Shown here in pieces: positions 7,334 through 40,984 of a stretch of DNA of 64,000 bases. The stretch spans positions 2,089 to 66,088 of the forward strand of contig LDXM01000012.1 in NCBI GenBank assembly GCA_001443375.1, written 5' to 3'. Position 1 is the stretch's first letter. Each line of letters begins with the position of its first letter. The notes below the pieces were generated by a model. It was not told the DNA's origin and ran no database searches. It saw only the letters and a list, made by a program, of their open reading frames with translations. This DNA is from Chloroflexi bacterium CSP1-4 (lineage in GTDB: Bacteria; Chloroflexota; Limnocylindria; Limnocylindrales; CSP1-4). A program made the translations under genes and the position numbers.

Positions 7334-8629
7334 ATGACCCGGATCGTGCTGATCGGCGCGGGCAGCGTCGAGTTCACGCGCAACCTCCTGGGCGACTTCC
7401 TCTCCTACCCGGAACTGCACGACGCGACGTTCGCCCTCCACGACATCGATGCCGACCGGCTCGCCACGGCCGAGCGCATGGCGCACTGGACCGCCGGCGC
7501 CCTGGGGGCGACCCCGCGCATCGAGGTCCATCTCGACCGCCGCGATGCCCTGCGCGGCGCCGACTTCGTCGTGGACACGATCCAGGTCGGCGGTGCCCGG
7601 GCGACGCAGATCGACTTCGGCGTGCCGGCGCGCCACGGCCTGCGCTACACGATCAACGACACCATCAACATCGGCGGCGTGATGCGCGGCCTGCGCACCA
7701 TCCCGGTCGTGCTCGACATCGTGCGCGACATGGAGGAGCTCTGCCCCGACGCCTGGTTCCTCAACTACACCAACCCCATGTCGATGCTCATCTGGGCCGT
7801 GGCCGAGCGGAGCGACATCCGCACGGTGGGGCTGTGCCACTCCGTCTACTGGACGGTGGACACGATCGGTCGCTACCTGGGCATCCCGCGCGAGGAGATC
7901 GAGCACGTCTCGGCGGGCGTCAACCACCTCGCCTTCCTGCTGCGACTGGAGCATCGCGGCCGCGACCTGTATCCGGACCTGCGCCGCTTCGTGGCCGACG
8001 ACCGGATCCCCCCGGACGACCTGGTGCGCGCGGAGCTGTTCCGGCGCCTGGGCTACTACCCCACCGAGTCCTCCGAGCACCACGCCGAGTACAACCCCTG
8101 GTTCATCCCCAAGGGGGACGCCGTGGAGCGCTTCAACATCCCCATCGGGGAGTACCTCTCGCGCGTGGCCGCGAACCTCGATGAGTACGCGGAGACGAAG
8201 CGCCGGCTCGACGCCGGCGAGCCGTTCGAGATCGAGCGCAGCGGCGAGTACGCCGCGGTCTTCGTCCATGCCCTCCTGACCGGCCAGACGGAACGGATCG
8301 TGGGCAACGTCATGAACCGCGGTTTCGTGGCCAACCTGGATCCGGACGCCTGCGTCGAGGTGCCCTGTCTCGTGGACGGCGGCGGGATCCATCCCCAGAC
8401 CGTGGGCCCCCTGCCGCCCCAGTGCGCCGCGTACATCCGGCCGGCCATCGACGCCCAGCGCCTGACCATCCGTGCGGCGCTCGACGAGGACCGCGACGCC
8501 GTCTACCACGCGGCCATGCAGGACCCGCAGATCCAGGCCCGCCTCTCCCTCGAGGAGACGTGGCGCCTGGTCGACGAGCTGATCGCGGCCGAAGGGGAGT
8601 GGCTGCCGGCGTGGCTCCGCCCCGGTTGA
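7334..8629 (+). CDS. glycoside hydrolase family 4 (NAD+/Mn2+-dependent alpha-glucosidase or alpha-galactosidase-like)
   Basis: The N-terminus MTRIVLIGAGSVEFTRNLLGDF is a Rossmann motif. CHSVYW, GVNHLAFLL and NPWFIPKGD are GH4 hallmarks. A GGAGG RBS lies 6 nt upstream of the ATG at 7334. The long track ORF 6545..8629 carries a 5' antisense extension. Confidence 0.85.
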   Translation: MTRIVLIGAGSVEFTRNLLGDFLSYPELHDATFALHDIDADRLATAERMAHWTAGALGATPRIEVHLDRRDALRGADFVVDTIQVGGARATQIDFGVPARHGLRYTINDTINIGGVMRGLRTIPVVLDIVRDMEELCPDAWFLNYTNPMSMLIWAVAERSDIRTVGLCHSVYWTVDTIGRYLGIPREEIEHVSAGVNHLAFLLRLEHRGRDLYPDLRRFVADDRIPPDDLVRAELFRRLGYYPTESSEHHAEYNPWFIPKGDAVERFNIPIGEYLSRVAANLDEYAETKRRLDAGEPFEIERSGEYAAVFVHALLTGQTERIVGNVMNRGFVANLDPDACVEVPCLVDGGGIHPQTVGPLPPQCAAYIRPAIDAQRLTIRAALDEDRDAVYHAAMQDPQIQARLSLEETWRLVDELIAAEGEWLPAWLRPG

Positions 8630-13559: not shown

Positions 13560-14626
13560 CCGCCGACGAGCTGCGCCTGGCCGACTTCCGGCCGCGCTCG
13601 CGGCTGCGGGTGGCCGCGCACGGGGTGCCCCGGCCGGCCGTACCGGCGATCGATGCCCACAACCACCTCGGTGCGGCGTTCGGCGGCGCCTGGGCCTCCC
13701 GCCCGCCGGACGAGCTGCTGCCGATCCTCGATGAAGCCGGCGTCGAAGCCATCGTCGACCTCGACGGGGGATGGGGCGAGGCGCTCGTGGCGGAGATCGA
13801 GCGCTGGCAGCGGCCGCATCCCGATCGCATCGCCGTCTTCGCCGGCCTCGACTACGAACGCTGGGCCGAGGACGAACGCTTCGGCGAGACCGAGGCCCGA
13901 CGACTCGAGGCGGCGGCCCTGGCGGGGGCTCGGGGCCTGAAGGTCTGGAAGGTGCTCGGGCTTCGGGCGCGCGACACGGTGGGTCGTCTCGTGGCCGTGG
14001 ACGACGCGCGGTTGGACCCGCTGTGGGCTGCGGCTGCTCGGCTGGCGCTGCCGGTCGTCATCCACGTCGCGGACCCGGTCGCCTTCTTCGAGTCCCTGGA
14101 CCCGACCAATGAGCGCTGGGAGGAGCTCCACGCCCACCCCGACTGGCACTTCTGGCCCACGCGGCCGCCGGGACGCCCCGATCTGCCCGGCTTCCCGCCC
14201 TTCGACGAACTGCTGGAGGGGTTGCGCCGGGTACTGCTGCGCCACCCGGTGACGACGTTCATCGGCGCGCACGTGGGTTGCGCCGCCGAGGACCTGGCCT
14301 GGGTGGGGGCGACGCTCGAGGCGTGCCCGAACTTCCACGTGGACATCGCGGCCCGCCTGGGCGAGCTGGGGCGGCAGCCGTACACCGCGCGGGCGTTCTT
14401 CGAGCGCTACGCCGACCGCGTCCTCTTCGGTGTGGACGTCGAGCCGGACCCGGAGGTCTACCGCCGCTACTACCGCTTCCTCGAGACCCGCGACGAGTCC
14501 TTCGATTACGACGCCGACGAGGTGCCCGGGCAGGGCCGCTGGCAGATCCACGGCATCGGGCTGCCCGAGGACGTGCTGCGCCGCGTCTACCGCGACAACG
14601 CCCGGCGGCTCATCTTCGAGCGGTAG
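13556..14626 (+). CDS. amidohydrolase-family (TIM-barrel metal-dependent hydrolase, amidohydrolase-2-like) protein
   Basis: The GTG at 13556 overlaps the SIS stop as GTGA. Translation VTADELRLADFRPRSRL...PAIDAHNHLG contains an HxH metal motif. The downstream sequence HVADPVAF...FIGAHVG is also family-typical. The track ORF starts earlier at 13307 with an Arg/Pro-rich, non-native extension. Confidence 0.75.
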   Translation: MTADELRLADFRPRSRLRVAAHGVPRPAVPAIDAHNHLGAAFGGAWASRPPDELLPILDEAGVEAIVDLDGGWGEALVAEIERWQRPHPDRIAVFAGLDYERWAEDERFGETEARRLEAAALAGARGLKVWKVLGLRARDTVGRLVAVDDARLDPLWAAAARLALPVVIHVADPVAFFESLDPTNERWEELHAHPDWHFWPTRPPGRPDLPGFPPFDELLEGLRRVLLRHPVTTFIGAHVGCAAEDLAWVGATLEACPNFHVDIAARLGELGRQPYTARAFFERYADRVLFGVDVEPDPEVYRRYYRFLETRDESFDYDADEVPGQGRWQIHGIGLPEDVLRRVYRDNARRLIFER

Positions 14627-15026
14627 CGGGCCGCCGCGCGCGGGGGATGACCAGGCGCAGCGCGGTGTGCGTCGGCGAGAACGCGACCACCTTGTTGTCG
14701 ACGAGTCCGGCGGCCTTCGCCGCGCCGATCACGTCCACATCCCGGATGGTCGCCGCCTTGCCCTTGCGCGAGACGACCCAGATGGCGCCGTTCGGCTTCA
14801 GCGCCCGCTCCAGTTCGCCGAGCGAGGCCAGCTCGGCGAGCGAGTCGGCGGCGAGGAAGATGAGGTCCGTCCCAGGCAGCGGCGCCCCATCGGTGATGTC
14901 CTGCGTGTGGGCCTCCAGCGCCGCCCGGAAGTCGGGGTCCGCGACGCCCATCACGGCCACGCGAGCACCCGGGAAGACGCCGAGCTTGTCGATGACCGGC
15001 TTGTCGTAGACGCGCTCCGGGCTCAC
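14610..15026 (-). CDS. DUF3052-domain protein
   Basis: Translation from the GTG at 15026 is [39 protein letters not shown]...IWVVSRKGKAATIRDVDVIGAAKAAGLVDNKVVAFSPTHTALRLV. The GTG overlaps the upstream cyclase stop as GTGA. The remainder of track ORF 14610..15758 is antisense junk. Confidence 0.6.
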   Translation of the reverse strand: MSPERVYDKPVIDKLGVFPGARVAVMGVADPDFRAALEAHTQDITDGAPLPGTDLIFLAADSLAELASLGELERALKPNGAIWVVSRKGKAATIRDVDVIGAAKAAGLVDNKVVAFSPTHTALRLVIPRARRPATARR

Positions 15027-18000
15027 GCGGACGGGACGCGGCTCGCGCTCGGGGCTGCGGCCGCGCGCGAGGTCGCTGACGCCCGCGGGCCACGTTCGAT
15101 GGCGCCCTCGAGGAGGGCCAGCATGGTCGGCGATCCCAGTTCCGCGATGAGCGCGCGGGCCTGGTCGGCCGCCACGCGCCCATACGGCTCGTCCACGCCG
15201 AGGAGCCCGACGGCAGCCGTGAGCATGAGCGCCCGGTCCACCCGGAAGCCCAGCTGGTCGAGGACCTCGATGGCCGACCGGAAGCCCGCCGCCCCGGCCG
15301 CCACGCGGCCCTCGAAGACGTCGATGGCGGCATCGAAGGCCGTCGTACTCACGTCGGCCACCCGGCCGCGAACGCCGACGGATCGCCAGCCCTCGCGAAC
15401 GACTCGCACGGCGGCCTCGTCGCCGGCCAGGAGCGCGTGGGTGCCGGCGACGATGTGTCCGGACATGGCCCAGGTCCCGCTCATCGTGGGCAGCGCCGCC
15501 ATGACGGTCCGGTAACCTGCGTCTGGGTCGCCGGACAGCGTCCGAAGAAGGCCCGCGTTGAAGGCGTGATAGAAGTGCGACTGCGGATCGCCTTCGGCGG
15601 GGAGCTGAGCCTCGATCTCGTTGCGCTGCCGGAAGGCGCCCTCGAGGTCGCCCTGATAGGCGGCGATGGCCATGCGCGTCTCGGCGAAACCCAAGCGATA
15701 TCCGAGCGGCACCTCGTCGCCGGCGAACACGTCGGCCTGCGCCAGGCACCACGCCCAATCGCCCAGGTCGTGGGTGGCGGTCCCCAGACTCACGGCCACG
15801 AGTTGGCGTTCCCAGTCGCGGAGCCCGACGCGGCGCGCCGTGACGAGCCCCTGGCGGGCCCCTTCCAAAGAGTCGGCGGGATCGTCGAGGTCGAGGAACA
15901 GGAGGTTGTTGCGGGCGCGCAGCTCGGCCTCGATCAGGCCGTGCGCCTCCGCGAAGCGGACGGCGCCGCGCATCAGCGCCAGCGCCTCCTGGAGGCGGCC
16001 CACGTCGGCCATCGCGCCGGCCTTCGTGTTGAGTGTCTCGGCGATGACCGGCGCCAGGCCGAGGCGCTCGGCCGCGATGAGCGCCTTCTCCGCCCAGGGC
16101 AGCACGTTTTCGGGCGGCTCCGCGCTCCGCCAGTGAGCGCGCGCGAGCTCCGAGGCCAGGCCGGCGAAGACGGCGTCATCGACCCCCTCGCCGGCCTCGA
16201 TCCGCGCCGCCGCTGCCTCGAGCGTCGCGAGACCCGCGGAAACCTCGCCCTCATGCAGGAGGATGGCGCCGAGACGCGTCGCGGCACGCACAGCGTCGGC
16301 GGTCAGTCCGGCTCCGCCATACCATGCGATGGCTTCACCCAGCGCGCTTTTGGCGGCCTCGAAGTGGCCTCCGAAATAGGCGGCATCGGCCAGCCGTTCC
16401 GTGACCGCCGCCTGCTCCGCCGCGTCGGTCGTGACGGTCAGCGTCTGGCGGTACAGCGCCGCCGCCTGGTCATGCGAGTGGAGCGCCAGGGCGCGCTCGG
16501 CGGCGGCACGGAGCGTGACCCGTGCCTGGGCGGCAACGGCCTCGCCCTCCGGACCGGCCGGGCTGGCCTCGTAGGCGGCGACGTAGTGGCTGGCCAGGAT
16601 GCCCGCCAGTTCGTCGTCGTCGAGGATCTCGTAGAAGCGTGCTGCGGCCAGGTGGCGGGCACGTCGCTCGCGACGACCGAGGGTCCCGTAGGCGACCTCC
16701 CGGATGACCGACTGGACGAAGCCGTACTGGCCGCGCTCGGGCGATCGGGGGTCGACATCGAGCTCGAGGATGTCGCGCCGGATGAGGCCGTGCAGCCGGC
16801 TCTCGAGCGCCGCTTCGGCCTCTCCGGAGATGCCCGACAAGCCGGCCAGCGTGAAGGTCTTGCCCAGGATCGAGGCGTCCTGGAGCAGGCCGCGGTCGGC
16901 CGCGGGGAGCGCATCGAGGCGGGCCGCGATGAGCGCCTGCAGGTTGGCCGGGATCTCCAGGCGATCGAGGGAACCGGTAGCCCGGAAACCACCCTCGGTC
17001 GCCTCGAGGCGCCCGCTGTCGAGGAGCATGCGGAAGGTCTCCACCGCGTAGAGCGGGACGCCGTCGGCCTGCTCGACGATGCGCCGGACCACGCTGGCAT
17101 CCAGCCCCGCCGCCATCCCTTCGACCAGCTGGATCATGGTCCCGTCGGCCAGGGGCTCCAGGTGGATGGCGGTGAAGTGGTGCTGCCCCGCGCCCCACGT
17201 CGGGCGGCGGTCGATGAGTTCCGGTCGTGCCAGGCTGACGATGAAGATGGGACGCCCGCGCGACCATTCGAGGATCGACTCGATGAAGTCGAGCAGGCCG
17301 GCATCAGCCCAATGGAGGTCCTCGAAGACCATCATCACCGGACCGCGGTCGGCGACCCGCTCGAAGAACGTCCGCCAGGCGGCGAAGAGCTCCTCCCGCT
17401 GGCCCGGCGGCGCCTCCTCGAGGCCGAGCAGGGCCAGGATGCGCGGCGCGATCCAGTGCCGTTCGTCGTCGTCGGCCACGTACTCGGCAAGCGTCGCGGC
17501 CACCTTTGCCCGGGTGGTCGCCTCGTCGTCGCCCTCGGCCAGCCCGGCCCGCCGGCGAACCATCTCCCCGAGCGCCCAGAACGTCACGCCATCCCCATAG
17601 GACGGCGACCGGCCCTGGTGCCAGAAGACGTCCTGCGCCAGGCCGTCGAGGTACTTCTCCAGCTCCCAGGCCAGTCGGCTCTTGCCGATGCCCGCGATGC
17701 CCACCAGCGAGACCAGCCGCGCTCGTCGCTCCCGCGCCGTGGCGTGATAGAGATCCTTGAGGAGCTGCAACTCGTGGTCGCGACCGACGAAGGGCGGCTC
17801 GATGCCGGTCGTGCGACCCATGCCCTTGCGTCCGGCCACGACGCGCACCGCCCGCCAGGCCGCCACGGGCAGGGCCTTGCCCTTGACCGTCTGATCGCCG
17901 GCCGGCTCGAAGGTGATGGCGTCACTGGCAGCGAGGAGGGTCGCCTCGCCGACCAGGACCTCGCCCGCCGCGGCGGCCGACTGCAATCGTGACGCGGTGT

Positions 18001-18606: not shown

Positions 18607-20712
<2,106 letters not shown>

Positions 20713-20737
20713 CTGGGTTGGCGGGTATCATGCCGAC

Positions 20738-21007
20738 GTGAAGATCACCCTGGACCTCGCCGATGCCGAGCTCTACCGCGCCATCAAGGTGGAGGCGGCG
20801 CGAAGTGACCTGACCGTGCGCGAGATCGTCGAGGCCGCGCTCCGGGACTGGCTCGAGCGCCGCGAGGACGAGGAGGACCGCCAGGCGGCCGCGGACGCAC
20901 TCGCGGAGTACGAACGCGACGGGGGCGTGGCGGTCGAGGAGTTCCTGAGCCGTGCGGCCGCCGAGCTGCGCGGGACGTACGGCGACGAGCCCGGTCAGGG
21001 GGCGTGA
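20738..21007 (+). CDS. type II antitoxin with a ribbon-helix-helix fold (CopG/Phd-like)
   Basis: The GTG at 20738 gives VKITLDLADAELYRAIKVEAARSDLTVREIVEAALRDWLERREDEEDRQAAADALAEYERDGGVAVEEFL. The stop overlaps the toxin start as GTGA. The track ORF is extended upstream to 20648. Confidence 0.6.
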   Translation: MKITLDLADAELYRAIKVEAARSDLTVREIVEAALRDWLERREDEEDRQAAADALAEYERDGGVAVEEFLSRAAAELRGTYGDEPGQGA

Positions 21008-21288
21008 CCAGGGAGCCGCCTCGCCACCGCGTGGAGATCGCCCCGGCGGCCCAGCGCGAGTTCAGCCGTCTGCGGCCCGACGATGCCGCCCGTCTTCGAG
21101 GCCCCATCCTCGCCCTGGCCCTGGATCCCCGTCCGCCGGGGGCGGCGACGCTCGTTGGGTCGGACTTCTGGCGTGTGCGGCTCGGGGATCTGCGGCTCGT
21201 CTACCTGATCGACGACGAGCGACGGCTCGTCGTGATCCTGCGCGTCGCCCGTCGCAGCGAGCGGACCTACCGGCGCCTGCGCGGCTAG
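21004..21288 (+). CDS. type II toxin of the RelE/ParE family
   Basis: 94-aa protein with HRVEIAPAAQREFSRL...DFWRVRLGDLRLVYLIDDERRLVVILRVARRSERTYR, a typical ParE/RelE fold signature. Confidence 0.75.
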   Translation: MTREPPRHRVEIAPAAQREFSRLRPDDAARLRGPILALALDPRPPGAATLVGSDFWRVRLGDLRLVYLIDDERRLVVILRVARRSERTYRRLRG

Positions 21289-22655: not shown

Positions 22656-24083
22656 TCAGTTCCAGCTCCCCGTAGACCAGCTGTTGCCCGACCAGCTGTT
22701 GCCCGACCAGGAGTTGCCGTTCCAAGTGCCGCCCGACCAGGAGTTGCCGTTCCAAGTGCCGCCGGACCAGCTGTTGCCGGCCGCCTCGGCGGTCGCCATT
22801 GCAGCCGAATCGAAGGCCTGACCGAAGATGTCCTGTTCGCCGGAGAGCACGACGCCGTCGCGGGTGAGGTGCTCTGAGCCACGCGAGAGCTCGAGCGAAC
22901 CGGTGCCGGTCGAGGCTTTGGGAAGGGCGCCCTTCTTCGTGTACGGTGTAAGCGCCAGCATCTTCGCGAGGTCGATCTCCCCTTGGCCCTGGGCGCGCTG
23001 CGAGCAGCCCCCGCAGGGGAGGACGTGCGCGCTGCTACGGAACAGGTACTTCAGCGTCAGCGGGTCGATCGAAGGGTACCGCTGGATGGCGAGTGCCGCC
23101 GCGCCTGCCACGATCGCCGCCGCCTGGCTCGTACCGCTTCCGCGGAAGAAGCGCGTGTCGATCCGCCCTCCCGGATAGGTCGCGTCGATGTACGAGTTGG
23201 GGACTTGCAGGCCCTGGAGGTGCGACCCGGGGGCGACGACGTCGACGTACCGTGAGGGACTCCCGGTGGAGGAGAATGCCGCGACGACGTCGTCGGCAAG
23301 TCCGGCCGTCCCCATCGAGTCCGAGGCGCCGACTGCGAGGATGTTGGGGTCGTACGCCGGGTTGGTCAGCGAGCCCGTCCTCGCCACGTAGCCCTCGTTG
23401 CCGGTGGCCGCGACGACGAAGATTCCGGCGTTCCACGCCTGCTCGACCGCGAAGGCGAGCGGATCGGCGACGTAGGACTGGCTCGAGTCCGTCCCGTAGG
23501 ACAGGTTGAGCACCCGGATGTTCATGCCGTTGTCGTTCTTGTGCTGGACCACCCAGTCGATCGCCGCGATCATCTGGGAGACGTCGGTTCCGCCGTCGGC
23601 GACGCCGACCTTGAGGCTGACGATCCGCGCGTCGGGGGCCACGCCGAGGAAGTCGGCCATGTCGGTCGCATAGGTCCCGGGTTGGGCGTTGCTACCCCGG
23701 CCGGCGATGATGCCGGCCATGAATGTCCCGTGCCCGTTCGTGTCGAGGTTCGTGAGGTTCGACGCCTGGGACTCGAGTGAGAGGTCCGGGCCGTAGATGA
23801 TCTTGCCGGCGGTAGCGAGGCCCTCGACCGGGCTGACGCCCGTGTCGATGAGCGCGACGTCGACGCCCGCGCCCGTGTAGCCGGCGGCCCACCAGGCCGT
23901 CGCGCCGGTGTACGCCGTCGTGTTGTACATCGAGTTCATGTCGCTCGCAGGGTCGTAGGGATCTGCGGCGTGCGCGGGTGCCGGCACAAGGAGGGCCGAG
24001 CCCAAGAACGCGACGGACATGACTGTCGCGAGCCGGCGCGTCGCACCGGTGAAGTCGAGGCTCCAGCCGAACGAGATGGTCAT
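22656..24083 (-). CDS. secreted S8-family subtilisin-like serine peptidase with a C-terminal Gly/Ser/Trp/Asn-rich repeat tail
   Basis: A signal peptide precedes the catalytic triad motifs VALIDTGV (Asp), HGTFMAGIIAG (His) and GTSQAAAIVAG (Ser). The C-terminus is SWSGGTWNGNSWSGGTWNGNSWSGNSWSGNSWSTGSWN. Confidence 0.85.
   Translation of the reverse strand: MTISFGWSLDFTGATRRLATVMSVAFLGSALLVPAPAHAADPYDPASDMNSMYNTTAYTGATAWWAAGYTGAGVDVALIDTGVSPVEGLATAGKIIYGPDLSLESQASNLTNLDTNGHGTFMAGIIAGRGSNAQPGTYATDMADFLGVAPDARIVSLKVGVADGGTDVSQMIAAIDWVVQHKNDNGMNIRVLNLSYGTDSSQSYVADPLAFAVEQAWNAGIFVVAATGNEGYVARTGSLTNPAYDPNILAVGASDSMGTAGLADDVVAAFSSTGSPSRYVDVVAPGSHLQGLQVPNSYIDATYPGGRIDTRFFRGSGTSQAAAIVAGAAALAIQRYPSIDPLTLKYLFRSSAHVLPCGGCSQRAQGQGEIDLAKMLALTPYTKKGALPKASTGTGSLELSRGSEHLTRDGVVLSGEQDIFGQAFDSAAMATAEAAGNSWSGGTWNGNSWSGGTWNGNSWSGNSWSGNSWSTGSWN
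22676..22790. repeat. tandem DNA repeats (30-nt unit x2 and 15-nt unit x2) encoding the GNSWSGGTWN peptide repeats
   Basis: gagttgccgttccaagtgccgcccgaccag is repeated at 22711..22740 and 22741..22770. ctgttgcccgaccag is repeated at 22681..22710. Confidence 0.7.
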
Positions 24084-24480
24084 CTCGTCACCGTCCGGCC
24101 AGCTGGCGGACGGGACCTGCTGCTCCGCGCCCGGTCACAGACGGCGATGAGCCCGGCGCGACAGCACGTGGGAAAGGGGAGCCTGCACGTACCGCGGGCG
24201 GCCGATCCTGCCACATCAAACCCACTCCCTTCGAGTGCGGTGCTGATGCGGTTCCTGGCAGCCGGGCGGTCCTTGGCGTTGAGCCCGAGGATCCCTGGCT
24301 TTGCGTCCCCGCCTCTCGACGGGTTTGCCGTACTTCAGACCGATCACGCGGGCGACGGTCGTCGTCGCCTCATGTGACCCAGAGGCTAGGGCCGGGCGTG
24401 CGGGCGGCCAGCCCGACGATGGTACCGGTCGGTGCACCGGTGCACAGCCCATTCGGCGGGGGCGCCAGGCTGTTGCCGGG

Positions 24481-27018
24481 TCAGGCAGCTCCTGCGGTGA
24501 GGCCGTCCTCGCCCGAGGTGCGGCGACCGTGCGGGAACCGTGCCTCGAGGTCGCTCGCGGGCATCGGCCGGGCGAGCAGGAACCCCTGCGCCCGTCGGCA
24601 GCCGAGCTCCTGGAGCCTCTGGAGCTGCGCCTCCTCCTCGACCCCCTCCGCGACCACGTCGAGGCCGAGGGTGTTGGCCATGGCGATGATGGCGGCAGCC
24701 AGGCCCCAGCCGTGCGGCCGATCGGCAGCGATGTCGACGAACTCGCGGGCGATCTTGAGCCCGTCGACCGGGAACCGTTGGAGGTAGCCCAGGGATGAGT
24801 AGCCCGTCCCGAAGTCGTCGATCATCAGATGAACGCCCAGCTTCCTAAGCGCTTGGAGCTTGTCGCTGGACTCCCGGGCGTTGGGGATGAGGCCGGACTC
24901 GGTCACCTCAAGGGCCAACCGACCCGGTGCGATCCCGCTCGCCTCCAGGAGCAGCCTGATGTCGTCGACGAAGTCGGCCTGCTCGAGCTGCCTCGGCGAC
25001 ACGTTCACGCTCAGCCACCAGGACCGGAACGGCTCCCCGAGTTCCTGCCAGGCATCCAGCTGCTCGAGTGACGCCCGGAGCACCCAGCGTCCGACATCCA
25101 GGATCAGGTTCGACTGCTCCGCGAGGCCGATGAACTCGAGCGGTTCGAGCAGGCCTCGGTGCGGGTCGTTCCAGCGCACCAGAGCCTCTGCGCCGACGAT
25201 CTGCTCCGTCTCCAGGTCGAACACCGGCTGGAAATGAAGGACGAGCTGATCATCGACGACGGCTCGCTTGAGCTTCGCCGACATGTCGCGTCGCTGCGAG
25301 AGAGCGGCCGCCATGTTGGGCTCGAACAGCACGACACGGCCCTTGCCGCTCGCCTTCGCGACGTACATCGCGACGTCGGCGTTCAGCATCAGCTCATCGG
25401 CCGAGGCGCGGCCTCGCCGACCGGCGGCGATCCCGAGGCTCGCGTGGACCGAGACGATCGACGTATCGAGGACGAACGGCTCGTCGATAGCGGCCATGAG
25501 CCGTTCGGCCGTTCGACGTGCGCCGACGAGGTCAGCACGATCCTCGAGCAGAACGGCGAACTCGTCGCCGCCGAGCCGGGCAGCGACGTCTTCTGCCCGC
25601 ACGCTCGCCGTGATCCGCTGACCGACCGCGCGCAGCAACGCGTCTCCGACCGGGTGCCCCATCGTATCGTTGACGAGCTTGAAGTCGTCGAGGTCGAGGA
25701 ACAGCACGACGGGGACCAGCTCCGCTGGACCGCTCGCCGCCAACCGTTCGCTGACCGCCTGTCCGAACAGCGCACGGTTGGCCAGTCCGGTCAGCGGGTC
25801 GTGGTTCGCCTGGTGGTGCAGCTCCTCCTTCAGCTCGGCAAGCCGATGGAGCGACTGCTCCAGCTGTCCGTTCTCGAGGGAGATCGCAATGTGGCTGGCG
25901 AGCGTCTCGAACAGGCGAAGGTCGGATGCGTCGAACGTGCTGATATCGCTCAGGCGGTTCGCGACTACGAGCGTCCCGATCAGCCGGTTCTCGCCGACGA
26001 GCGGGGCCACCATGGCGTTCCGGAACCGTGGCGCGGACGCCGGGTCCGCGACCGTCACGAGGAGTGACCGGCGTTCATCCATCGCCCGGAGGAGGAGCGG
26101 GTCGTCGACGGTTGTCCCCACGGGCACCATCGACCCCCCCTCGGCGTCGCTTCGGCTGGTCGTTCTCAGGAGCTCGTCGCCTTCGCGCGCCGGGAGCAGC
26201 GTGAGTTCCGCGACATCGGCCCTGAACATCGTCCGGGCATGCTGGAGGAGCTCCGCCACCGCGCGCTCCACCTGGGGGCTGCGCTGGAGGATGCGCGTCG
26301 ACTCGTGCAGCATCTCCAGCCCCTCGGTCTGCTGGCGCTGCCCGACATACGCACGATAGGAGACGAAGGCGACGCCGACCGGGACGGCGAGAAGGATCGA
26401 GGCAATCGGCTCGTACTGAAGGATGACGATGGCGAGCAGGGCGAGGCTCGCGTTCGCGAGCGCGATGAACAGGCCCGTGCGCAGCATCTCCGGGATCCGG
26501 TGGAGCTGGGCCTTGCCCTCGGCGAGTGAGATCGCGGTCGCGATCGCGGACACGCTGACCACGTTCTCCGCAGTCGTCGCGAGGTACGCGGCCCCCCACT
26601 CGAGCGGACCGAAGCCGGTGCGTCCCGCGGCGAGGACGTGGATGATTCCGATGGCCACCACCGAGCCGAACAGGAACTGGGCGAGGTTGAACGCCAGCTT
26701 CACGGACCGCTGGCGGCGCACGAACGCGAGTGCGAAGCCGCCGCCGAGCATCCGCGCGATGATGAACGACATCGGTTCGAGGAAGAAGAGGCCGAAGAGG
26801 ATCGGGATCTCGGCCATCGAGAACGAGTGCGCGCTGCGTCCGATGTGCAGGTGAACGACCCTGGCTTCGACGATGAAGAAGGCCAGCGCTACCAGGGGCC
26901 AGGGGACCGGAAACGGGAGCGAGCGTGGGGCGCCCCGAGGCAGCTCGAGGACCGAGATAACGAGCGCGCTCACGACAAGCACGATCGTCAGGATCCCGAC
27001 GCGCTGGGTTCCCGTCAT
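24481..27018 (-). CDS. membrane sensor diguanylate cyclase/phosphodiesterase (N-terminal multi-TM domain, GAF, GGDEF, EAL)
   Basis: VPVVLFLDLDDFKLVNDTMGHPVGDALL...RLGGDEFAVL is the GGDEF domain. QPVFDLETEQIVGAEALVRW...EVTESGL...IDDFGTGYSSL is the EAL domain. The start was placed at Met-56 (27018) where the TM domain begins. The track ORF extends to 27183 with an Arg-rich N-tail. Confidence 0.75.
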   Translation of the reverse strand: MTGTQRVGILTIVLVVSALVISVLELPRGAPRSLPFPVPWPLVALAFFIVEARVVHLHIGRSAHSFSMAEIPILFGLFFLEPMSFIIARMLGGGFALAFVRRQRSVKLAFNLAQFLFGSVVAIGIIHVLAAGRTGFGPLEWGAAYLATTAENVVSVSAIATAISLAEGKAQLHRIPEMLRTGLFIALANASLALLAIVILQYEPIASILLAVPVGVAFVSYRAYVGQRQQTEGLEMLHESTRILQRSPQVERAVAELLQHARTMFRADVAELTLLPAREGDELLRTTSRSDAEGGSMVPVGTTVDDPLLLRAMDERRSLLVTVADPASAPRFRNAMVAPLVGENRLIGTLVVANRLSDISTFDASDLRLFETLASHIAISLENGQLEQSLHRLAELKEELHHQANHDPLTGLANRALFGQAVSERLAASGPAELVPVVLFLDLDDFKLVNDTMGHPVGDALLRAVGQRITASVRAEDVAARLGGDEFAVLLEDRADLVGARRTAERLMAAIDEPFVLDTSIVSVHASLGIAAGRRGRASADELMLNADVAMYVAKASGKGRVVLFEPNMAAALSQRRDMSAKLKRAVVDDQLVLHFQPVFDLETEQIVGAEALVRWNDPHRGLLEPLEFIGLAEQSNLILDVGRWVLRASLEQLDAWQELGEPFRSWWLSVNVSPRQLEQADFVDDIRLLLEASGIAPGRLALEVTESGLIPNARESSDKLQALRKLGVHLMIDDFGTGYSSLGYLQRFPVDGLKIAREFVDIAADRPHGWGLAAAIIAMANTLGLDVVAEGVEEEAQLQRLQELGCRRAQGFLLARPMPASDLEARFPHGRRTSGEDGLTAGAA

Positions 27019-27375
27019 GCCGCGGATGAGACCGCGGACGCCGATCGTGGCGATCCGCGGCTGGGCTCGCGGGACATTCACGTCGGGGTGCGCTCCCTCG
27101 TTCAGATTCGGATGCCGACGGAAGCCCCGATGCGGCAACACCCCGGCGGCCTGACGGTACGGGCCACCCCGGCGCGGGGCCATGACCCGAACGGCGGACG
27201 CTGCCGGTACCTGGGTACCGGCTCCCGCGCGATCTCGGCACGCCGCGCACCAGCCATTCGGGAACAGCCAACGCGTCGTCGGTGCCGCCGGCGTGACGAA
27301 CGGGAGCGTTGAGTCCTGCCCACTCGAACCTGCCCCGGCATCGGTCAGTCGGCGCCCGTGCCGGCGCCGGCCGCC

Positions 27376-28113
27376 TCAGGCAGGACCTTGGAGCTCGATC
27401 CGGATGCGCTTGTTGATCCGGCCCTTGCTCTCGTAGCCGGTGACGCGAATCTGGCCGACCTCGCGTGTGTTGGCGACATGGGTCCCGCCGTCGGCCTGGA
27501 GGTCGAGGCCGACGATCTCGATGGTCCGGATCTCCTCGATCCCCGGCGGCAGGAGGTTGATCTTGGTCCGGATGAGGTCGGGGATGGCGAAGGCCTCGTC
27601 GCGCGGCAGGATCTTCACGCGCACCTCGCGCTCGGCCGCCAGCTCGGCGTTCACCCTGGCCTCGATCTCGCCCACGAGCTCGCCGGACATCGTCTCGAAC
27701 TCGAAGTCCATGCGCCCGGCGCCGGGCTCCATGTTGCCCCCGGTGACGAGCGCCCTGTAGTCGCGCCAGACCACGCCGCACAGCGTGTGCAGCGCGGTGT
27801 GGGTGCGCATCAAAAGGTGGCGGCGCTCCCAGTCGATGGTGGCCGTGACCGCGTCGCCCACCGCCGGTCCCTCGACCGCGTCGAGGAGGTGGACGATCCC
27901 CCCGCCCGACTTGCGGGCGCCGAGGACGGTCCAGGTCGTCCCGTCCGCCCGGACGATCGTGCCGCTGTCCGCGGGCTGGCCGCCGCCGCCGGGGTAGAAG
28001 ACGGTCCGGTCCAGCGTGACGAGCGTGCGCCCATCGTCGCCGGTCTCGACCGCGGTGACGGCGGCCTCGACGGATCGGGCGTAGGCATCCCGGTAGCAGA
28101 CCGCGTCGGTCAC
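27376..28113 (-). CDS. alanyl-tRNA editing protein AlaX-M-like (misacylated tRNA(Ala) deacylase, second additional domain of AlaRS)
   Basis: HTALHTLCGVVW...GGTHV zinc-binding motifs are present. The GTG at 28113 overlaps the upstream stop as GTGA. The track ORF extends to 28167. Confidence 0.7.
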   Translation of the reverse strand: MTDAVCYRDAYARSVEAAVTAVETGDDGRTLVTLDRTVFYPGGGGQPADSGTIVRADGTTWTVLGARKSGGGIVHLLDAVEGPAVGDAVTATIDWERRHLLMRTHTALHTLCGVVWRDYRALVTGGNMEPGAGRMDFEFETMSGELVGEIEARVNAELAAEREVRVKILPRDEAFAIPDLIRTKINLLPPGIEEIRTIEIVGLDLQADGGTHVANTREVGQIRVTGYESKGRINKRIRIELQGPA

Positions 28114-28562
28114 GGTACGATCGTGAAGGTGCCCTTCATCACGGAGTAGTGGCCGGGGAGGGTGCACCCGAAGGCCAGCGGGCCGTCAGCGTCGAAGGTG
28201 TACGTGAACTCCTTCGTGCCGCTCGAGAACGGCAACACGCCGGCCATGTGCTCGTGCCCGCCGCCCTTCAGCTCCTCGTCCGTCGCGACGTGGAAGTCGT
28301 GGTCGTAGCCGGCCGTGTTCTTGATGCGGAAGGTGTACGTCTCGCCCTTCTTCACCGTGATCGACGCGACCTGCTGGCCAGCCTGCTCGATCTTGAGGGC
28401 GCCGGTCAGCTCCAGCTCGATGACCTCGCCCGGGATGGGCGTACCGGTCACGGGGGTAGGCGTGGCCGCCGTCGCGCCACCGCAGGCGGCAAGAAGGGCA
28501 ACGACGGCGATCGCGACGATGACGGTGAGGGCGCGCCGGGGGCGCGGTCTGCGTGTGTACAT
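28110..28562 (-). CDS. blue (type 1) copper protein lipoprotein with a cupredoxin fold
   Basis: The signal peptide MYTRRPRPRRALTVIVAIAVVALLAACGG has a lipobox. The copper ligand pattern is H(DFHV)...C(TLPGH)...H...M (YDHDFHV...FGCTLPGHYSVMKG). The likely start is Met at 28562. The ORF extends to 28646. Confidence 0.65.
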   Translation of the reverse strand: MYTRRPRPRRALTVIVAIAVVALLAACGGATAATPTPVTGTPIPGEVIELELTGALKIEQAGQQVASITVKKGETYTFRIKNTAGYDHDFHVATDEELKGGGHEHMAGVLPFSSGTKEFTYTFDADGPLAFGCTLPGHYSVMKGTFTIVP

Positions 28563-33011: not shown

Positions 33012-34382
33012 TTAGTGGATGCCCCGCTCACGCAGGAAGCGGGCGGCGAGGCCCTCACCGCCCAGGATCGGCTCCGGCTCGAAGATCCGGCGCAGCTGGA
33101 GTTCCCCGAAAGCCGTCCGCACGTCGTCGTCGATGTCCTCGGCGCCGGGGGCGAAGCTCGTCGGGTCCGGAGCGACGAGGTCGCCCAGCGTCATCTTGTG
33201 GACCCAGCCGACCTGGCCCAGCGGCGTGCGCACCTGCCAGTAGAGGCCGGAGCGCTCCAGCAGCTCGACCTCGTCGTCCTCATCGAGGCGCCCGATCTCG
33301 GCGCCACGGAGTTCGTCCGGCGCGTCGGTCAGGCGGACCATGCGGTAACGGATCCTGCGCCGCTCGAGATCGTCGCCAGGCGCCACGAAGGCCCGATCGA
33401 AGGTGAGCCGCTCCGAATGGAGCGGGGCGAGGCTGGTGCCGGGATCGGACCTGCGGGCCGCGGCGAGGGAGGGGCGGCGCCAGCGGGGCAGGGCCATCTC
33501 CTGGCTCGCGGCGTCGAAGCCTGTTGCCGGCCGGGTATGGTCGTTGCTCGACCGATCCGCGTCGCGCCGCTCCCGTAGGTCCTCGTCCTCTTCGCGGCGG
33601 CGCCGCTTGAACGTGAAGAGGGCCATGGCCACGGCCGCTGAGCCTGCCGCGGAGATGGCCGCGCTGCGGGAGGCGAGAAGCAACCACTCTTCGCTGCCGA
33701 AGCCGGGCAGGCGCGCGGCCAGGAGGGCGATCCCTTGCACCGGCGGTCCTTCGCCTCCGGGCGCGTCACCCGGTCCGAGGACGGACGTCGAGACATCGCC
33801 GACGGGCGCCTCAGGGAGTCCACCGTCCATACCAGGACCACCCTGCGTCTGGCCTCCGCCGGAGATGCCGTTGGAATCGGGTGCGATGACGCCGGCGACA
33901 AAGCCGCCGCCCACATCGGGGGTGGCCGTGGTGGCGGGCGTGGGGGCCGGGGTCGGCGCGGGCGTCGGTGCGGGGGCCACGGCGATCGTGCCGCCGGACA
34001 GCTCGACCGTCCGATCCTTGCCGTCGGTGGCCGCGAACGAGTAGGTATGGCTGCCGGCGTCCAGCTGCACGATGGTGCGATAGCGGGTGCCGTCGCGGAA
34101 GTTGGTGTCGGAGGCGTCCACCTGCGCCATGTCGACGGCCACGCCGTCGATGAGCACGCGGACCCAGGCCGGCTGCACGTCGTCCTTGCTGAGGTAGGTG
34201 ACGGAGAACGTGAAGGGGTCGCCGGCCGTGCCCGCCCCGGGCGAGGCCTGTCCGCCGGACAGACTCAGGGGCCCGGAAGCCCATGCCGACGCGGTGGCCG
34301 AGAGGCAGAGGAGCAGGACGAGCGGGAGGATCACGAGAAGCGCCCGCACGCGCTGGCCCCGGATGATTCCGTAGACGTTCAA
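33012..34382 (-). CDS. hypothetical bitopic membrane protein with a signal peptide, extracellular domain, Pro/Thr-rich linker, TM helix and cytoplasmic charged segment plus C-terminal domain
   Basis: 456-aa protein. The N-terminal signal is MNVYGIIRGQRVRALLVILPLVLLLCLSATASAWA. The linker is APTPAPTPAPTPATTATP. The TM is AAISAAGSAAVAMALFTF, followed by KRRRREEDEDLRERRD. Confidence 0.55.
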   Translation of the reverse strand: MNVYGIIRGQRVRALLVILPLVLLLCLSATASAWASGPLSLSGGQASPGAGTAGDPFTFSVTYLSKDDVQPAWVRVLIDGVAVDMAQVDASDTNFRDGTRYRTIVQLDAGSHTYSFAATDGKDRTVELSGGTIAVAPAPTPAPTPAPTPATTATPDVGGGFVAGVIAPDSNGISGGGQTQGGPGMDGGLPEAPVGDVSTSVLGPGDAPGGEGPPVQGIALLAARLPGFGSEEWLLLASRSAAISAAGSAAVAMALFTFKRRRREEDEDLRERRDADRSSNDHTRPATGFDAASQEMALPRWRRPSLAAARRSDPGTSLAPLHSERLTFDRAFVAPGDDLERRRIRYRMVRLTDAPDELRGAEIGRLDEDDEVELLERSGLYWQVRTPLGQVGWVHKMTLGDLVAPDPTSFAPGAEDIDDDVRTAFGELQLRRIFEPEPILGGEGLAARFLRERGIH

Positions 34383-38312: not shown

Positions 38313-38693
38313 CTAACGCGCCGCGACGACCTCGATCTCGCAGCGCGCCCCGAGGGCGAGGCGAGACACGCCCACCGTCGCGCGCGTGGGCGGATCGACG
38401 GGGAAGAACTCACGGTACGCCTCGTTGTAGGCGGCGAACTCGTCCATGTCGGTCAGGTAGACCGTCGCCTTCACGACGTCGCCGAAGTCGAGGCCGGCGA
38501 GGCGGAGCTTGGCGCCGACGTTCTCGAGCATCTGGCGCACCTCGGCCCCGATCCCGCCGGGCACGACCGCGCCGGTGGCCGGGTCGTCGCCCACCTGGCC
38601 GGCGACGAAGACGAAGCCGTTCGCCTCCACGAGCTGCGAGAACGGGTAGCGGCCCTCGGGCAGGCCGGCGGGTCGGAGGACGGTCTTGGGCAT
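38313..38693 (-). CDS. RidA/YjgF/TdcF-family reactive intermediate deaminase
   Basis: 126-aa protein with YPFSQLVEANGFVFVAGQVG...VVKATVYLTDMDEFAAYNEAYREFFP...PTRATVGVSRLALGARCEIEVVA. Confidence 0.85.
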   Translation of the reverse strand: MPKTVLRPAGLPEGRYPFSQLVEANGFVFVAGQVGDDPATGAVVPGGIGAEVRQMLENVGAKLRLAGLDFGDVVKATVYLTDMDEFAAYNEAYREFFPVDPPTRATVGVSRLALGARCEIEVVAAR

Positions 38694-38723: not shown

Positions 38724-38799
38724 TGGTAGGGGAGCCTGGATTCGAACCAGGGACCGGCGGTGTATAAGACCGCTGCTCTAACCGCTGAGCTACTCCCCC
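38724..38799 (-). tRNA. tRNA with anticodon UAU as read (nominally tRNA-Ile(UAU)); 76 nt including the encoded CCA
   Basis: The reverse complement folds as a cloverleaf: GGGGGAG-TA-GCTC-AGCGGTTA-GAGC-A-GCGGT-CTTATAC-ACCGC-CGGTC-CCTGG-TTCGAAT-CCAGG-CTCCCCT-A-CCA. The stems are 7/4/5/5 bp, the T-loop is TTCGAAT, U33 is present, A37 is present, and A73 is the discriminator. Confidence 0.8.
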
Positions 38800-38811: not shown

Positions 38812-39228
38812 CTACTCGTGCGAGCCGAGGAGTCGCGCGGCGATGGAGCGCAGCCCGCCCTGGCTCGAGGAACGCAGGGTCTCGTGGGCTGCGGCCTCCT
38901 GGGCAGACCGGGCGCGGCTCGCTTCGGCGAGCAGGCGCTGCTCTTCCGCGGTCCGGAACGCCTCGAGGGGCAGGTCGTCGGGGTCGAAGGGGCGCTCCGT
39001 CGGCGGCGCCGCCCGTGGCGGGCGCGCATAGGCGGGAGCGCCCAGCAACCGGGGCATGGCGAAGTGCGCGGCGCCCCCGCCATCCGCCGGGACGGACGGA
39101 GCGTGGGACGAGGGGCCGGAACCGTTGCTCGACGTCGCCTGATGCGGCAGGTGTCCGTCGGGGTCGTCCGACGCACGGGCGGTCGCTTGGGCGACGCCTG
39201 CCTCGCCGGTTGGCCGCGGGCTCAACAC
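38812..39228 (-). CDS. hypothetical protein
   Basis: The GTG at 39228 has a GGAG RBS upstream (ggagtcaacGTG). The C-terminal two-thirds (HFAMPRLLGAPAYARPP...EAFRTAEEQRLLAEASRARSAQEAAAHETLRSSSQGGLRSIAARLLGSHE) looks native. The N-terminal extension of track ORF 38812..39462 looks non-coding. Confidence 0.4.
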   Translation of the reverse strand: MLSPRPTGEAGVAQATARASDDPDGHLPHQATSSNGSGPSSHAPSVPADGGGAAHFAMPRLLGAPAYARPPRAAPPTERPFDPDDLPLEAFRTAEEQRLLAEASRARSAQEAAAHETLRSSSQGGLRSIAARLLGSHE

Positions 39229-39352: not shown

Positions 39353-39727
39353 TCAGAGCAGCGGCCGCACCACCTGGAAGGCGACGACGAGGACGATGTA
39401 GACGACGGGGAAGGCGGCGAACATGCCGAGCATGGCGGCCCACGGCGAGCGACGCCGCTCACCCGAGGCCCCGCTCGGCAGCGGCGCCCAGAGGTACGTG
39501 AGCAGGCCCCCGGCAGCGACGACCCCCACGACGTAGAGCGCGAAGGCGCCCAGGCCCGCTCCGCCCGATGCGAGATCCCAGCCCAGGAGCACGATCCCGC
39601 CCACCACCGCTACGACGACGTCGGCGACGACGGCGCGCACGATGGGCGGCGGCGCGTTGCGCGCCTGTCGCCAGCGAACCTCCAGCTCCGAGCGCTCGCG
39701 GGCGTCGGTCGGATCGATGGGCGACAC
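39353..39727 (-). CDS. small membrane protein with two or three TM helices
   Basis: 124-aa protein MSPIDPTDARERSELEVRWRQARNAPPPIVRAVVADVVVAVVGGIVLLGW...LYVVGVVAAGGLLTYLW...FAAFPVVYIVLVVAF. Confidence 0.5.
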   Translation of the reverse strand: MSPIDPTDARERSELEVRWRQARNAPPPIVRAVVADVVVAVVGGIVLLGWDLASGGAGLGAFALYVVGVVAAGGLLTYLWAPLPSGASGERRRSPWAAMLGMFAAFPVVYIVLVVAFQVVRPLL

Positions 39728-39730
39728 CCG

Positions 39731-40984
39731 TCAGGCGCCAGGCGCCGCGTCGGACGGCAGCATCACGAGCGCGGGCCGGCGGGGGAGGGTGGCCGGCGTG
39801 TGGCGCGCCAGCTCGGCGACCGCTTCGGCGAAGCGCTCCAGCTCGTCCTCGGAGTTGAAGAAGCCGACCGAGATGCGCAGCGCGTCCACGGCGGCGACCG
39901 TGCGCGTGATGGCGAAGACACGCCGCGATAGCTCCTCGCGCAGCTCCAGCGGCGTCCAGCCCTGGACGCGGAACGAGACCAGGGTGGCCATCCGCTCCTG
40001 CGGCGTCACCAGCGTCACTCCGGGGACGGCCGCCAGGCGAGCGGCGGTGGCGCGGGCGATGCGACCCGCCCGCTCGAACGCCCACGCCAGGCCCACGTGC
40101 ATCTCCAGCCAGCCCACCGAGCGCGCCAGCCCGACCGTCGAAGGCTTGTGGTAGTTCGTGGCCTCGAAGCGACGTGCATCGGGCCAGCGGTCCCCGCGGG
40201 CATGCGCGTCGAGCGTCGCGAAGCTGAGCCAGCCGGCCGTGACCGGGAGCGCCTCCGCAACGGCTCGCGGCGACGCCCACAGCGCGCCCGTCCCCTCCGG
40301 CCCCAGCAGCCACTTCTGGCCGGGGAAGGCGATGAAGTCGGCGCCGATGGCCTCCGCGTCCACGAGGATCGCCCCCGCCGACTGGGCCGCGTCGACCGCG
40401 TACCAGACGCCGCGCTCGCGGGCGATGCGGCCGATCTCGACCACCGGCAGCACGGCGCCCGTCGTCCACAGCACGTGGGAGAGGGAGACCAGGCGCGTGC
40501 GCGGGGTCATGGCCGCGGCGATCCGTTCCTGGATGAGGGCCGGGTCACCGCCGCCCTCCACGTCCACGATGTCAAGGGCGACGCCGGCGCGGTCGCGGAC
40601 GGCGACCAGAGGCCCCAGCAGGCCGGGGTGCTCGGCGTTCGTCGTCAGGGCCCGGTCGCCCGGTCGCCAGTCGACGCCCCACGTGGCGATGTTCATGCCG
40701 TCGGTCGTGGAGTGGGTCAGCGCGATCGACTCCGGGCCGGCAGAGAGGAGCGCGGCGAGCACACCGCGGCACTCGTCCATGCGCTCGAGGAAGGCATCCC
40801 AGCCGGCCGGGTCGGCGCGCCCCACCCGCTCCTCCCAGTCCTCCAGCTCGCGCATGGCCCTGACGGTGGCGGCGGGCAGCGGACCCGACGTGCCGGTGTT
40901 GAGGTAGATGCCCGCCCCGGTCGCCGGGAGCGCCGCGCGGATCGCGGCGAGCTTCTCCGGATCGGGCTGGAGGGGGGCGACCAT
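39731..40984 (-). CDS. class V aminotransferase-fold PLP-dependent enzyme (cysteine desulfurase/SufS-CsdA-like)
   Basis: The real start is Met-34 (40984): MVAPLQPDPEKLAAIRAALPATGAGIYLNTGTSGPLP. The sequence ...AVDAAQSAGAILVD...FPGQKWLLGPEGTGALW contains the PLP-lysine region. Confidence 0.8.
   Translation of the reverse strand: MVAPLQPDPEKLAAIRAALPATGAGIYLNTGTSGPLPAATVRAMRELEDWEERVGRADPAGWDAFLERMDECRGVLAALLSAGPESIALTHSTTDGMNIATWGVDWRPGDRALTTNAEHPGLLGPLVAVRDRAGVALDIVDVEGGGDPALIQERIAAAMTPRTRLVSLSHVLWTTGAVLPVVEIGRIARERGVWYAVDAAQSAGAILVDAEAIGADFIAFPGQKWLLGPEGTGALWASPRAVAEALPVTAGWLSFATLDAHARGDRWPDARRFEATNYHKPSTVGLARSVGWLEMHVGLAWAFERAGRIARATAARLAAVPGVTLVTPQERMATLVSFRVQGWTPLELREELSRRVFAITRTVAAVDALRISVGFFNSEDELERFAEAVAELARHTPATLPRRPALVMLPSDAAPGA

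Follow-up and report, generated by a model that had tools for sequence, protein, structure and literature searches.

The window analysed here is a 64-kb stretch of the genome of Chloroflexi bacterium CSP1-4 (contig LDXM01000012.1), taken in its whole length, with a G+C content of about 72%. It contains a single tRNA gene, which ARAGORN, run over the whole 64 kb, places on the minus strand and assigns to tRNA-Ile with the anticodon tat. How AUA can be read without AUG being misread as well is a long-standing puzzle in genetic-code research, to which almost all bacteria have found the answer in lysidine. Bacterial tRNA-Ile with a UAU anticodon is rare (PMC3575796, PMC3919564) and is still counted among 'rare cases' (bioRxiv 10.64898/2026.02.03.703510), which agrees with what an earlier inspection of the window (the sequence-only reading) had stated about such genes. 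The locus is a genuine tRNA gene with this rare anticodon, and we propose, with a probability of about 0.88, that it is a functional, single-copy chromosomal tRNA-Ile(UAU) gene that decodes the very rare AUA codon as isoleucine without lysidine.

The 76-nt minus-strand sequence of the gene is GGGGGAGUAGCUCAGCGGUUAGAGCAGCGGUCUUAUACACCGCCGGUCCCUGGUUCGAAUCCAGGCUCCCCUACCA. Rfam RF00005 matches it at 38727-38799 with 71.3 bits against a gathering score of 29 (E = 1.3e-13), and the cloverleaf is its minimum-free-energy fold. The acceptor stem comprises 7 bp, of which the first is a G1.U72 wobble, and is followed by an 8-nt D loop, an anticodon stem GCGGU/ACCGC enclosing the loop CUUAUAC, a 5-nt variable loop and the T loop UUCGAAU. 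Cloverleaf, conserved D and T loops and a score above threshold place the gene in the RF00005 tRNA family. ARAGORN, Rfam and the minimum-free-energy fold thus agree on the canonical cloverleaf described in the sequence-only reading, ARAGORN and Rfam assigning the same structure and ARAGORN the same anticodon, tat. The anticodon loop had likewise been read correctly as C-U-UAU-A-C at 38762-38768, and the strand, which had been left out, is the minus strand. The coordinates of this gene and of the other features discussed below are collected in the table.

Table. Features of the window, with positions, strand and the basis of each assignment
Feature	Position	Strand	Basis
tRNA-Ile(UAU) gene, 76 nt, CCA encoded	38724-38799	-	ARAGORN, Rfam RF00005, minimum-free-energy fold, covariation in 35 variants
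Anticodon loop C32 U33 U34 A35 U36 A37 C38	38762-38768	-	direct sequence reading
Anticodon UAU	38764-38766	-	direct sequence reading
Acceptor stem 5' strand GGGGGAG, tRNA positions 1-7	38793-38799	-	constant in 35 variants
Acceptor stem 3' strand CUCCCCU (positions 66-72), A73 and CCA	38724-38734	-	
Discriminator A73	38727	-	
Encoded CCA	38724-38726	-	
RidA/L-PSP, 30 nt downstream of the tRNA	38313-38693	-	Pfam Ribonuc_L-PSP; NCBIfam TIGR00004, 110 bits, above cut-off
138-aa open reading frame (ORF)	38812-39228	-	called as gene in metagenome assemblies
124-aa ORF	39353-39727	-	called as gene in metagenome assemblies
Class-V pyridoxal-phosphate enzyme, C-DES-like (L-cysteine/cystine C-S lyase), upstream of the tRNA	39731-40984	-	Pfam Aminotran_5
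Region of the block conserved in relatives (ATP-dependent DNA ligase, DUF6812, rhodanese, lyase, tRNA)	38313-44279		loci L234-L313
c-di-GMP-I riboswitch	24254-24339	-	Rfam RF01051, 63.4 bits
Genes flanking the riboswitch	22656-24083; 24481-27183	-; -	
SH3_3-domain protein	33012-34382	-	
41-nt BLAST overlap in the SH3_3-domain gene	33934-33974		
Free-standing AlaX-like editing protein	27376-28167	-	tRNA-synt_2c C-terminal part and tRNA_SAD
ParE toxin gene	20648-21288	+	

Conservation of the anticodon and of the locus

A single C-to-T change in a normal CAT gene, either tRNA-Ile2 or elongator tRNA-Met, would suffice to produce the gene seen here, and its D arm (positions 8-27) is identical at 19 of 20 positions to E. 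coli tRNA-Ile2, both ileX and ileY. T34 might then be an assembly or sequencing error, as the sequence-only reading had allowed, or a private mutation. Ten metagenome contigs were therefore compared that had been chosen via an identical neighbouring RidA protein (ENA assemblies ERZ272547xx-548xx; JGI 3300025119, 3300025325). They represent the same species, were assembled independently from different samples, show 99.6-99.8% identity with the window and are not identical to one another; tRNA-Ile(tat) is in place in all ten, which excludes an assembly error or private mutation. TAT is likewise the anticodon in 20 species genomes and in all 57 tRNAs recovered by an anticodon-blind synteny search (described below), in which CAT never occurs at that position, and C34 was seen neither in the ten same-species assemblies nor in about 90 related loci. 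An error or private mutation at T34 is accordingly refuted and has next to no chance of being correct. With T at position 34 in every copy examined, the gene is not a lysidine-dependent tRNA-Ile2(CAU), in which C34 is the substrate of TilS.

One genome per prokaryotic species was scanned with the pattern GGTCTTATACACC-N10-GGTTCRANTCC, which fixes the anticodon arm, so that relatives carrying CAT were undetectable by design and the invariance of the arm among its 20 high-GC genomes is partly imposed. The 93 matching stretches fall into two groups, about 70 low-GC DPANN archaea and 20 high-GC genomes (67-74%) in which the tRNA is 89-100% identical to that of the window. The high-GC carriers are titled Candidatus Limnocylindria, Limnocylindrales, 'uncultured Chloroflexia' or Chloroflexota bacterium, with one Gaiellaceae, and include one complete 3.68-Mb chromosome (OY970306.1). 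The closest, JBGPMJ010000028.1 ('Candidatus Limnocylindria bacterium'), shares 94% nucleotide identity with the window over 5.4 kb; in the remaining high-GC carriers the flanks align at merely 65-75%, with the tRNA nearly unchanged. Two sequences with other labels, L144 (CAVVDE010000010.1, 'uncultured Gaiellaceae bacterium') and P0125 ('Candidatus Saccharimonadia'), have a Limnocylindria-type tRNA and lyase synteny or sequence, and look like taxonomic mislabels or bin contamination.

Since the pattern scan could not find CAT-carrying relatives, the search was restarted from the neighbouring lyase gene. Lyase orthologues from the 20 genomes (51-62% identical) were aligned and run against metagenome contigs, tRNAs were called with ARAGORN, and 80 loci were retained in which the lyase has 52-100% amino-acid identity and the GC content is 66-74%. 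A tRNA is held by 57 of these loci, and in all 57 it is tRNA-Ile(TAT). It lies on the same strand as the lyase gene and 47-2741 nt downstream of it in 56 cases, and is inverted and 3.3 kb away from the lyase in L300. Where 1.5 kb or more of sequence is available downstream of the lyase (46 loci), the tRNA is present in 44. The conserved block listed in the table is found in relatives whose proteins are 52-63% identical, and the lyase profile search leads to proteins that NCBI names as belonging to Candidatus Limnocylindrales or Chloroflexota bacteria. Synteny and sequence conservation thus indicate that tRNA-Ile(UAU) has been passed on vertically in Candidatus Limnocylindria, in genomes of about 66-74% G+C, and has kept its place in the chromosome downstream of the C-DES-like lyase.

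Selection on the structure was assessed with the 35 distinct full-length tRNA variants obtained from the window, the genomes and the metagenome loci. Across these variants 98.5% of the cells are paired on the cloverleaf, and two-sided changes occur in nine pairs: the complete anticodon stem (five pairs), plus three in the T stem and a single one in the D stem. Covariation attains a score of 0.319, compared with 0.084 in shuffles, none of 500 of which comes up to that value, and control alignments with partners slid by 1-3 columns give no more than 0.082. RNAalifold independently yields the cloverleaf from the variants. The sequence C32-U33-U34-A35-U36-A37 is constant in 35 of 35, while position 38 is always a pyrimidine (C or U), never A. 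Apart from the 1-72 pair, which is G.U in 32 variants and G-C in three, the acceptor stem GGGGGAG/CUCCCC(U/C) is constant too. The natural variants therefore mark as constrained the anticodon loop, the pyrimidine at position 38 (Y38) and the entire acceptor stem. Turnover of the stems with retention of pairing around an unchanged loop argues that the gene is under purifying selection as a tRNA and that UAU is its conserved state, and Y38 together with an acceptor stem bearing G1.U72 is the lineage's own signature.

Genes for tRNA-Ile(TAT) are very common in viral contigs (at least 120 matches), and two related phage contigs carry the same acceptor stem, as might be expected if the window gene were a recently acquired mobile or phage-derived tRNA and not a core gene of the lineage. 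We consider this very unlikely. The gene has a fixed place in a chromosomal block that is conserved over the lineage, where relatives' proteins are 52-63% identical, and neither this block nor the surroundings of the tRNA contain phage genes or an integrase. The viral tRNAs among the matches listed do not resemble it and come from contigs of 24-54% GC, and a phage origin was rejected on this ground. The two similar copies, which reside in ATA-rich phage DNA of 53-54% GC, fit transfer from host to phage.

The viral genes are of some interest in themselves. A general tRNA-Ile(TAT) pattern matches at least 120 viral contigs in IMG/VR (L011-L130), and of the matches listed 100 have A and 20 have C at position 38, with a contig GC of 24-54%. 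The two contigs with the related tRNA-Ile(UAU) are L314 (IMGVR_UViG_3300002835_000958; 5073-5148, plus strand) and L315 (IMGVR_UViG_3300008262_004700; 7653-7728, minus strand), which are 84-95% identical, have 53-54% GC and encode MazG and a DPBB lytic-transglycosylase-like gene. Their tRNA has the Limnocylindria-type stem GGGGGAG/CUCCCCU, A73, CCA and U38, and ATA accounts for 6.7-9.3 per 1000 codons in their ORFs, which is about 10-70 times as much as in the host lineage. These features fit a host-derived tRNA that would supplement a scarce host decoder.

Genes around the tRNA and elsewhere in the window

The best match of the lyase in the PDB is 1ELQ, the Synechocystis C-DES (E = 2.4e-44), and the catalytic-cysteine loop of SufS is absent from it. 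The 138-aa and 124-aa ORFs between the lyase and the tRNA have no Pfam or NCBIfam match and are present in just some relatives, and RidA adjoins the tRNA in the closest relatives only. The tRNA starts 12 nt past the 138-aa ORF in the window and 47-90 nt past the lyase gene in many relatives. A promoter and terminator scan around the tRNA gave nothing, with no sigma-70-like promoter beside the gene. Elsewhere the window encodes DnaB, LexA, FolD, formate-tetrahydrofolate ligase, an ATP-dependent DNA ligase, ABC transporters and signalling proteins, and Pfam identifies no integrase or phage gene among the window genes.

The lyase and a rhodanese (3-mercaptopyruvate-sulfurtransferase-like) gene are divergently transcribed, and RidA would remove the 2-aminoacrylate produced by the lyase. 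A sulfur relay in which lyase and rhodanese supply thiolation of U34 was considered and set aside, since the block also holds an unrelated DNA ligase and a DUF6812 gene, a PP-loop thiouridylase is missing, and the adjacency of RidA is limited to close relatives. We found no evidence for a functional link between the lyase/rhodanese block and the tRNA; a sulfur-relay link to U34 is only remotely conceivable, and the linkage of lyase and tRNA looks like general conservation of gene order.

Several features of the window are unrelated to the tRNA. A c-di-GMP-I riboswitch lies directly downstream of a GAF-GGDEF-EAL signalling gene and ∼170 nt upstream of an S8 subtilase gene, which suggests c-di-GMP control of a secreted protease. 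The SH3_3-domain protein has 456, 480, 492 or 496 residues among strains that are 99.6-99.8% identical (L001-L007, around 14312-15800), and the 41-nt BLAST overlap within its gene suggests that an internal repeat differs in copy number. The window also encodes a free-standing AlaX-like editing protein and a ParE toxin, and a 119-aa ORF that overlaps the start of the ParE gene may be the antitoxin.

Usage and meaning of AUA

The sequence-only reading had proposed a check of AUA usage. Codons were counted in the 47 confidently coding ORFs of the window, which have a third-position GC of at least 0.84. Their 17,321 codons include 2 ATA, 6 ATT and 694 ATC, so that ATA, at 0.12 per 1000, is extremely rare in the window. 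Orthologues of the window proteins at 100 related loci contain 79 ATA among 120,566 codons (0.66 per 1000), and usage climbs as GC drops, from 0.14 per 1000 at 72-76% GC to 1.6 at 65-69%.

The meaning of the codon was assessed from the residue of the window protein that stands opposite each codon of diverged orthologues, a comparison that included 77 ATA codons. Opposite ATA, isoleucine, valine, leucine and methionine occur at frequencies of 0.32, 0.23, 0.21 and 0.03, respectively. The corresponding values are 0.34, 0.28, 0.19 and 0.02 opposite ATT and 0.35, 0.29, 0.20 and 0.03 opposite ATC, compared with 0.05, 0.04, 0.20 and 0.44 opposite ATG. The ATA profile is like those of ATT and ATC and unlike those of ATG, CTG, GTC or ACC, which indicates that AUA is read as isoleucine in these relatives and that a decoder is required. 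Judged by these substitutions, AUA is a rare but real isoleucine codon in the lineage.

The same result bears on whether the UAU tRNA is charged with isoleucine at all. ARAGORN derives the isotype from the anticodon alone, C38 or U38 stands in place of A38, the acceptor stem is unusual in having G1.U72, and AUA is nearly absent from the window, all of which could be accommodated if the tRNA carried another amino acid or if AUA were reassigned or unassigned in the lineage. This is highly improbable given that the profile of the 77 ATA codons is indistinguishable from those of ATT and ATC and differs from those of the ATG, CTG, GTC and ACC codons; A73 moreover fits isoleucine identity. Assignment of the isotype from the tRNA body was dropped, as global identities to E. 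coli tRNAs do not separate isotypes; the D arm alone resembles E. coli tRNA-Ile2, which is weak evidence.

Decoding of AUA as isoleucine would then proceed as follows. The tRNA is probably co-transcribed with its same-strand neighbours, because no promoter-like site lies beside it, and would be trimmed to its encoded CCA end. In tRNAs that read ANN codons, A37 beside U36 is expected to be N6-threonylcarbamoyladenosine (t6A), and A37 of the window tRNA would likewise be t6A. The lineage's IleRS would accept the UAU anticodon, and the tRNA, charged with isoleucine, would read AUA by direct U34-A pairing. U34, either unmodified or carrying a special modification, would act jointly with the ribosome to prevent misreading of AUG, as happens in Mycoplasma mobile and a Bacillus subtilis suppressor. 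The UAU tRNAs of these two organisms, the two bacterial ones that have been studied by experiment, have an unmodified U34 and, on their own ribosomes, read AUA strongly and AUG weakly (PMC3575796, PMC3919564). Their charging needs Arg or Lys at the position of E. coli IleRS Trp905, or a eukaryote-type IleRS (PMC3575796, PMC3919564).

Several points weigh against the proposal that the gene is a functional isoleucine tRNA for AUA. The isotype is assigned from the anticodon, A73 and the codon-substitution test, and both isoleucine aminoacylation and the modification state of U34 are inferred. Global identities to 17 E. coli tRNAs, at 44-56 of 76 positions, are non-discriminating, and the highest is to tRNA-Gln through a chance similarity of the stems. 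Among the identity elements A73, A35 and U36 are present and position 38 is a pyrimidine; A38 was reportedly described by Nureki in 1994 as an identity element for E. coli IleRS, and recognition must therefore follow a scheme other than that of E. coli. At two syntenic loci, L242 and L298, there is no trace of the tRNA within 3-4 kb. As to whether the tRNA is the sole decoder, on the 64 kb of the genome and the short related loci inspected a lysidine system may be in use beside it.

The lysidine system and other UAU decoders

TilS acts on C34, and the window tRNA, having U34, by its sequence cannot be a substrate of this enzyme. Lysidine-free decoding of AUA by a UAU tRNA, as put forward in the sequence-only reading, is supported by the presence of U34, not C34, in every copy. 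Besides this tRNA, the genome may also encode a CAU-type tRNA-Ile2 together with tilS. Among the 47 window genes Pfam scans detected no TilS, IleRS, Hpt or FtsH, and ARAGORN found no CAU-type tRNA in the 64-kb window or in the fetched loci, which amount to a few per cent of a genome. With phmmer, E. coli TilS has no match in the six-frame translation of the window and the fetched loci, the same few per cent of a genome. The best 120 matches listed for E. coli TilS in a collection of 5.8 billion proteins are all enterobacterial, and tblastn of a plasmid collection gave no Chloroflexota TilS.

The tRNA may either be the lineage's only AUA decoder or act beside a retained lysidine system. Bacteria with both systems are documented (PMC3575796). 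The near-universality of tilS in bacteria adds to the case for a redundant second decoder in a lineage that has kept tilS and a CAU-type tRNA-Ile2 and still uses lysidine. Against such redundancy, the tRNA is in place with an invariant anticodon in the 44 of 46 sufficiently long syntenic loci, over a divergence at which the neighbouring protein is 52-63% identical, and two systems for a codon used at 0.1-1.6 per 1000 would be unexpected over such a distance. That nearly all loci have kept the TAT gene, rare as its codon is, thus suggests that it is probably not redundant, and the odds of a second decoder beside lysidine are somewhat below even. The chance that this tRNA is the lineage's only AUA decoder, tilS and tRNA-Ile2(CAU) having been lost, is put at roughly one half on these data. 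That the whole class Candidatus Limnocylindria has discarded tilS and tRNA-Ile2(CAU) and relies on tRNA-Ile(UAU) only is a bolder proposal, whose chances, judged from the same sequences, fall slightly short of even.

Bacterial UAU decoders have been described in a few lineages. Taniguchi et al. (2013) listed nine species in three clades (Mycoplasma, Bifidobacterium and Neorickettsia) with a TAT gene and without tilS, and a few others with both (PMC3575796). The tRNA-Ile2(UAU) of M. mobile (PMC3575796) resembles that of the window in having an encoded TAT anticodon, in being dedicated to AUA, in its A37 and in needing no lysidine. However, M. mobile is a parasite with a reduced, AT-rich genome in which AUA is frequent and the absence of tilS has been shown; its U34 is demonstrably unmodified, and adaptation of its IleRS (Arg865) and its ribosome has been shown (PMC3575796). 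Limnocylindria, in contrast, are free-living, have about 70% GC and hardly use AUA. Bifidobacterium and Neorickettsia likewise have a lineage-conserved TAT tRNA-Ile, and Bifidobacterium is also a high-GC terrabacterium (PMC3575796). Both lack tilS and have IleRS2-type (eukaryote-type) enzymes (PMC3575796), and their tRNA bodies are unrelated to that of Limnocylindria as far as the exact-pattern scan shows. Lactobacillus casei, L. plantarum, Cyanothece PCC 7424 and Ferrimonas balearica carry a TAT tRNA-Ile alongside tilS (PMC3575796), but these are scattered species, whereas the Limnocylindria gene is fixed over a class-level clade at a conserved locus.

The B. subtilis suppressor of a tilS deletion, a G34U variant of tRNA-Ile1, has an unmodified UAU anticodon that reads AUA well and AUG weakly (Kohrer et al. 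2014, PMC3919564) and is charged by an IleRS with Arg at the key position (PMC3919564). It is a laboratory mutant of the GAU isoacceptor, whereas the Limnocylindria gene is natural and old, and the D arm of the latter is closer to the E. coli CAU-type tRNA-Ile2 (weak evidence), unlike the GAU origin of the suppressor. Among archaea, the tRNA-Ile(UAU) of Nanoarchaeum equitans and Korarchaeum cryptofilum represents the same solution without a C34-modifying enzyme (PMC3919564, PMC6000648). The archaeal genes differ from that of Limnocylindria in their acceptor stems, in having no encoded CCA and in residing in low-GC genomes. The ∼70 DPANN genomes share the 13-nt anticodon arm GGUCUUAUACACC with the window tRNA, an arm imposed by the search pattern and not conserved within Limnocylindria, and the match is therefore no evidence of a common origin.

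In a survey of 167 genomes, the UAU anticodon was found only in Nanoarchaeum and Korarchaeum (PMC6000648). About 70 DPANN species genomes (within L131-L223; Iainarchaeota/Diapherotrites, Micrarchaeota and unclassified archaeal metagenome-assembled genomes) encode tRNA-Ile(UAU), including L141 (Candidatus Iainarchaeum andersonii) and L204 (Candidatus Forterrea). L137 and L181 are labelled Chloroflexota, yet have low GC and archaeal-type tRNAs, and look mis-binned.

Full-text literature searches found no paper tying Limnocylindria to anticodons and none on loss of tilS in Chloroflexota. The window gene is a known rare kind of decoder in a new lineage that is class-level, free-living and high in GC, and the mechanism is not new. 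Only a handful of bacterial species are known to depart from the lysidine route, and most of them live as parasites or symbionts and have reduced genomes, whereas here the gene is fixed in a deep, free-living lineage; the known range of the bacterial UAU decoder is thus widened to a deep, environmentally abundant, high-GC lineage of the Chloroflexota, and annotation pipelines should not flag the TAT anticodon here as an error. Limnocylindria are uncultured, free-living bacteria that abound in soil and freshwater, and their genomes measure roughly 3-4 Mb at about 70% GC. Should tilS have been lost throughout the class, they would represent the first case of a large, free-living lineage of bacteria that lacks lysidine, a question that can be answered directly because the complete carrier chromosome OY970306.1 is public. 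They would also provide a natural case of codon capture, in which AUA is almost eliminated by GC pressure, lysidine modification disappears and a U34 tRNA recaptures the codon, and the invariant G1.U72 stem and Y38 would mark a co-evolved recognition, by IleRS or by a factor controlling U34, that guards against misreading of AUG.

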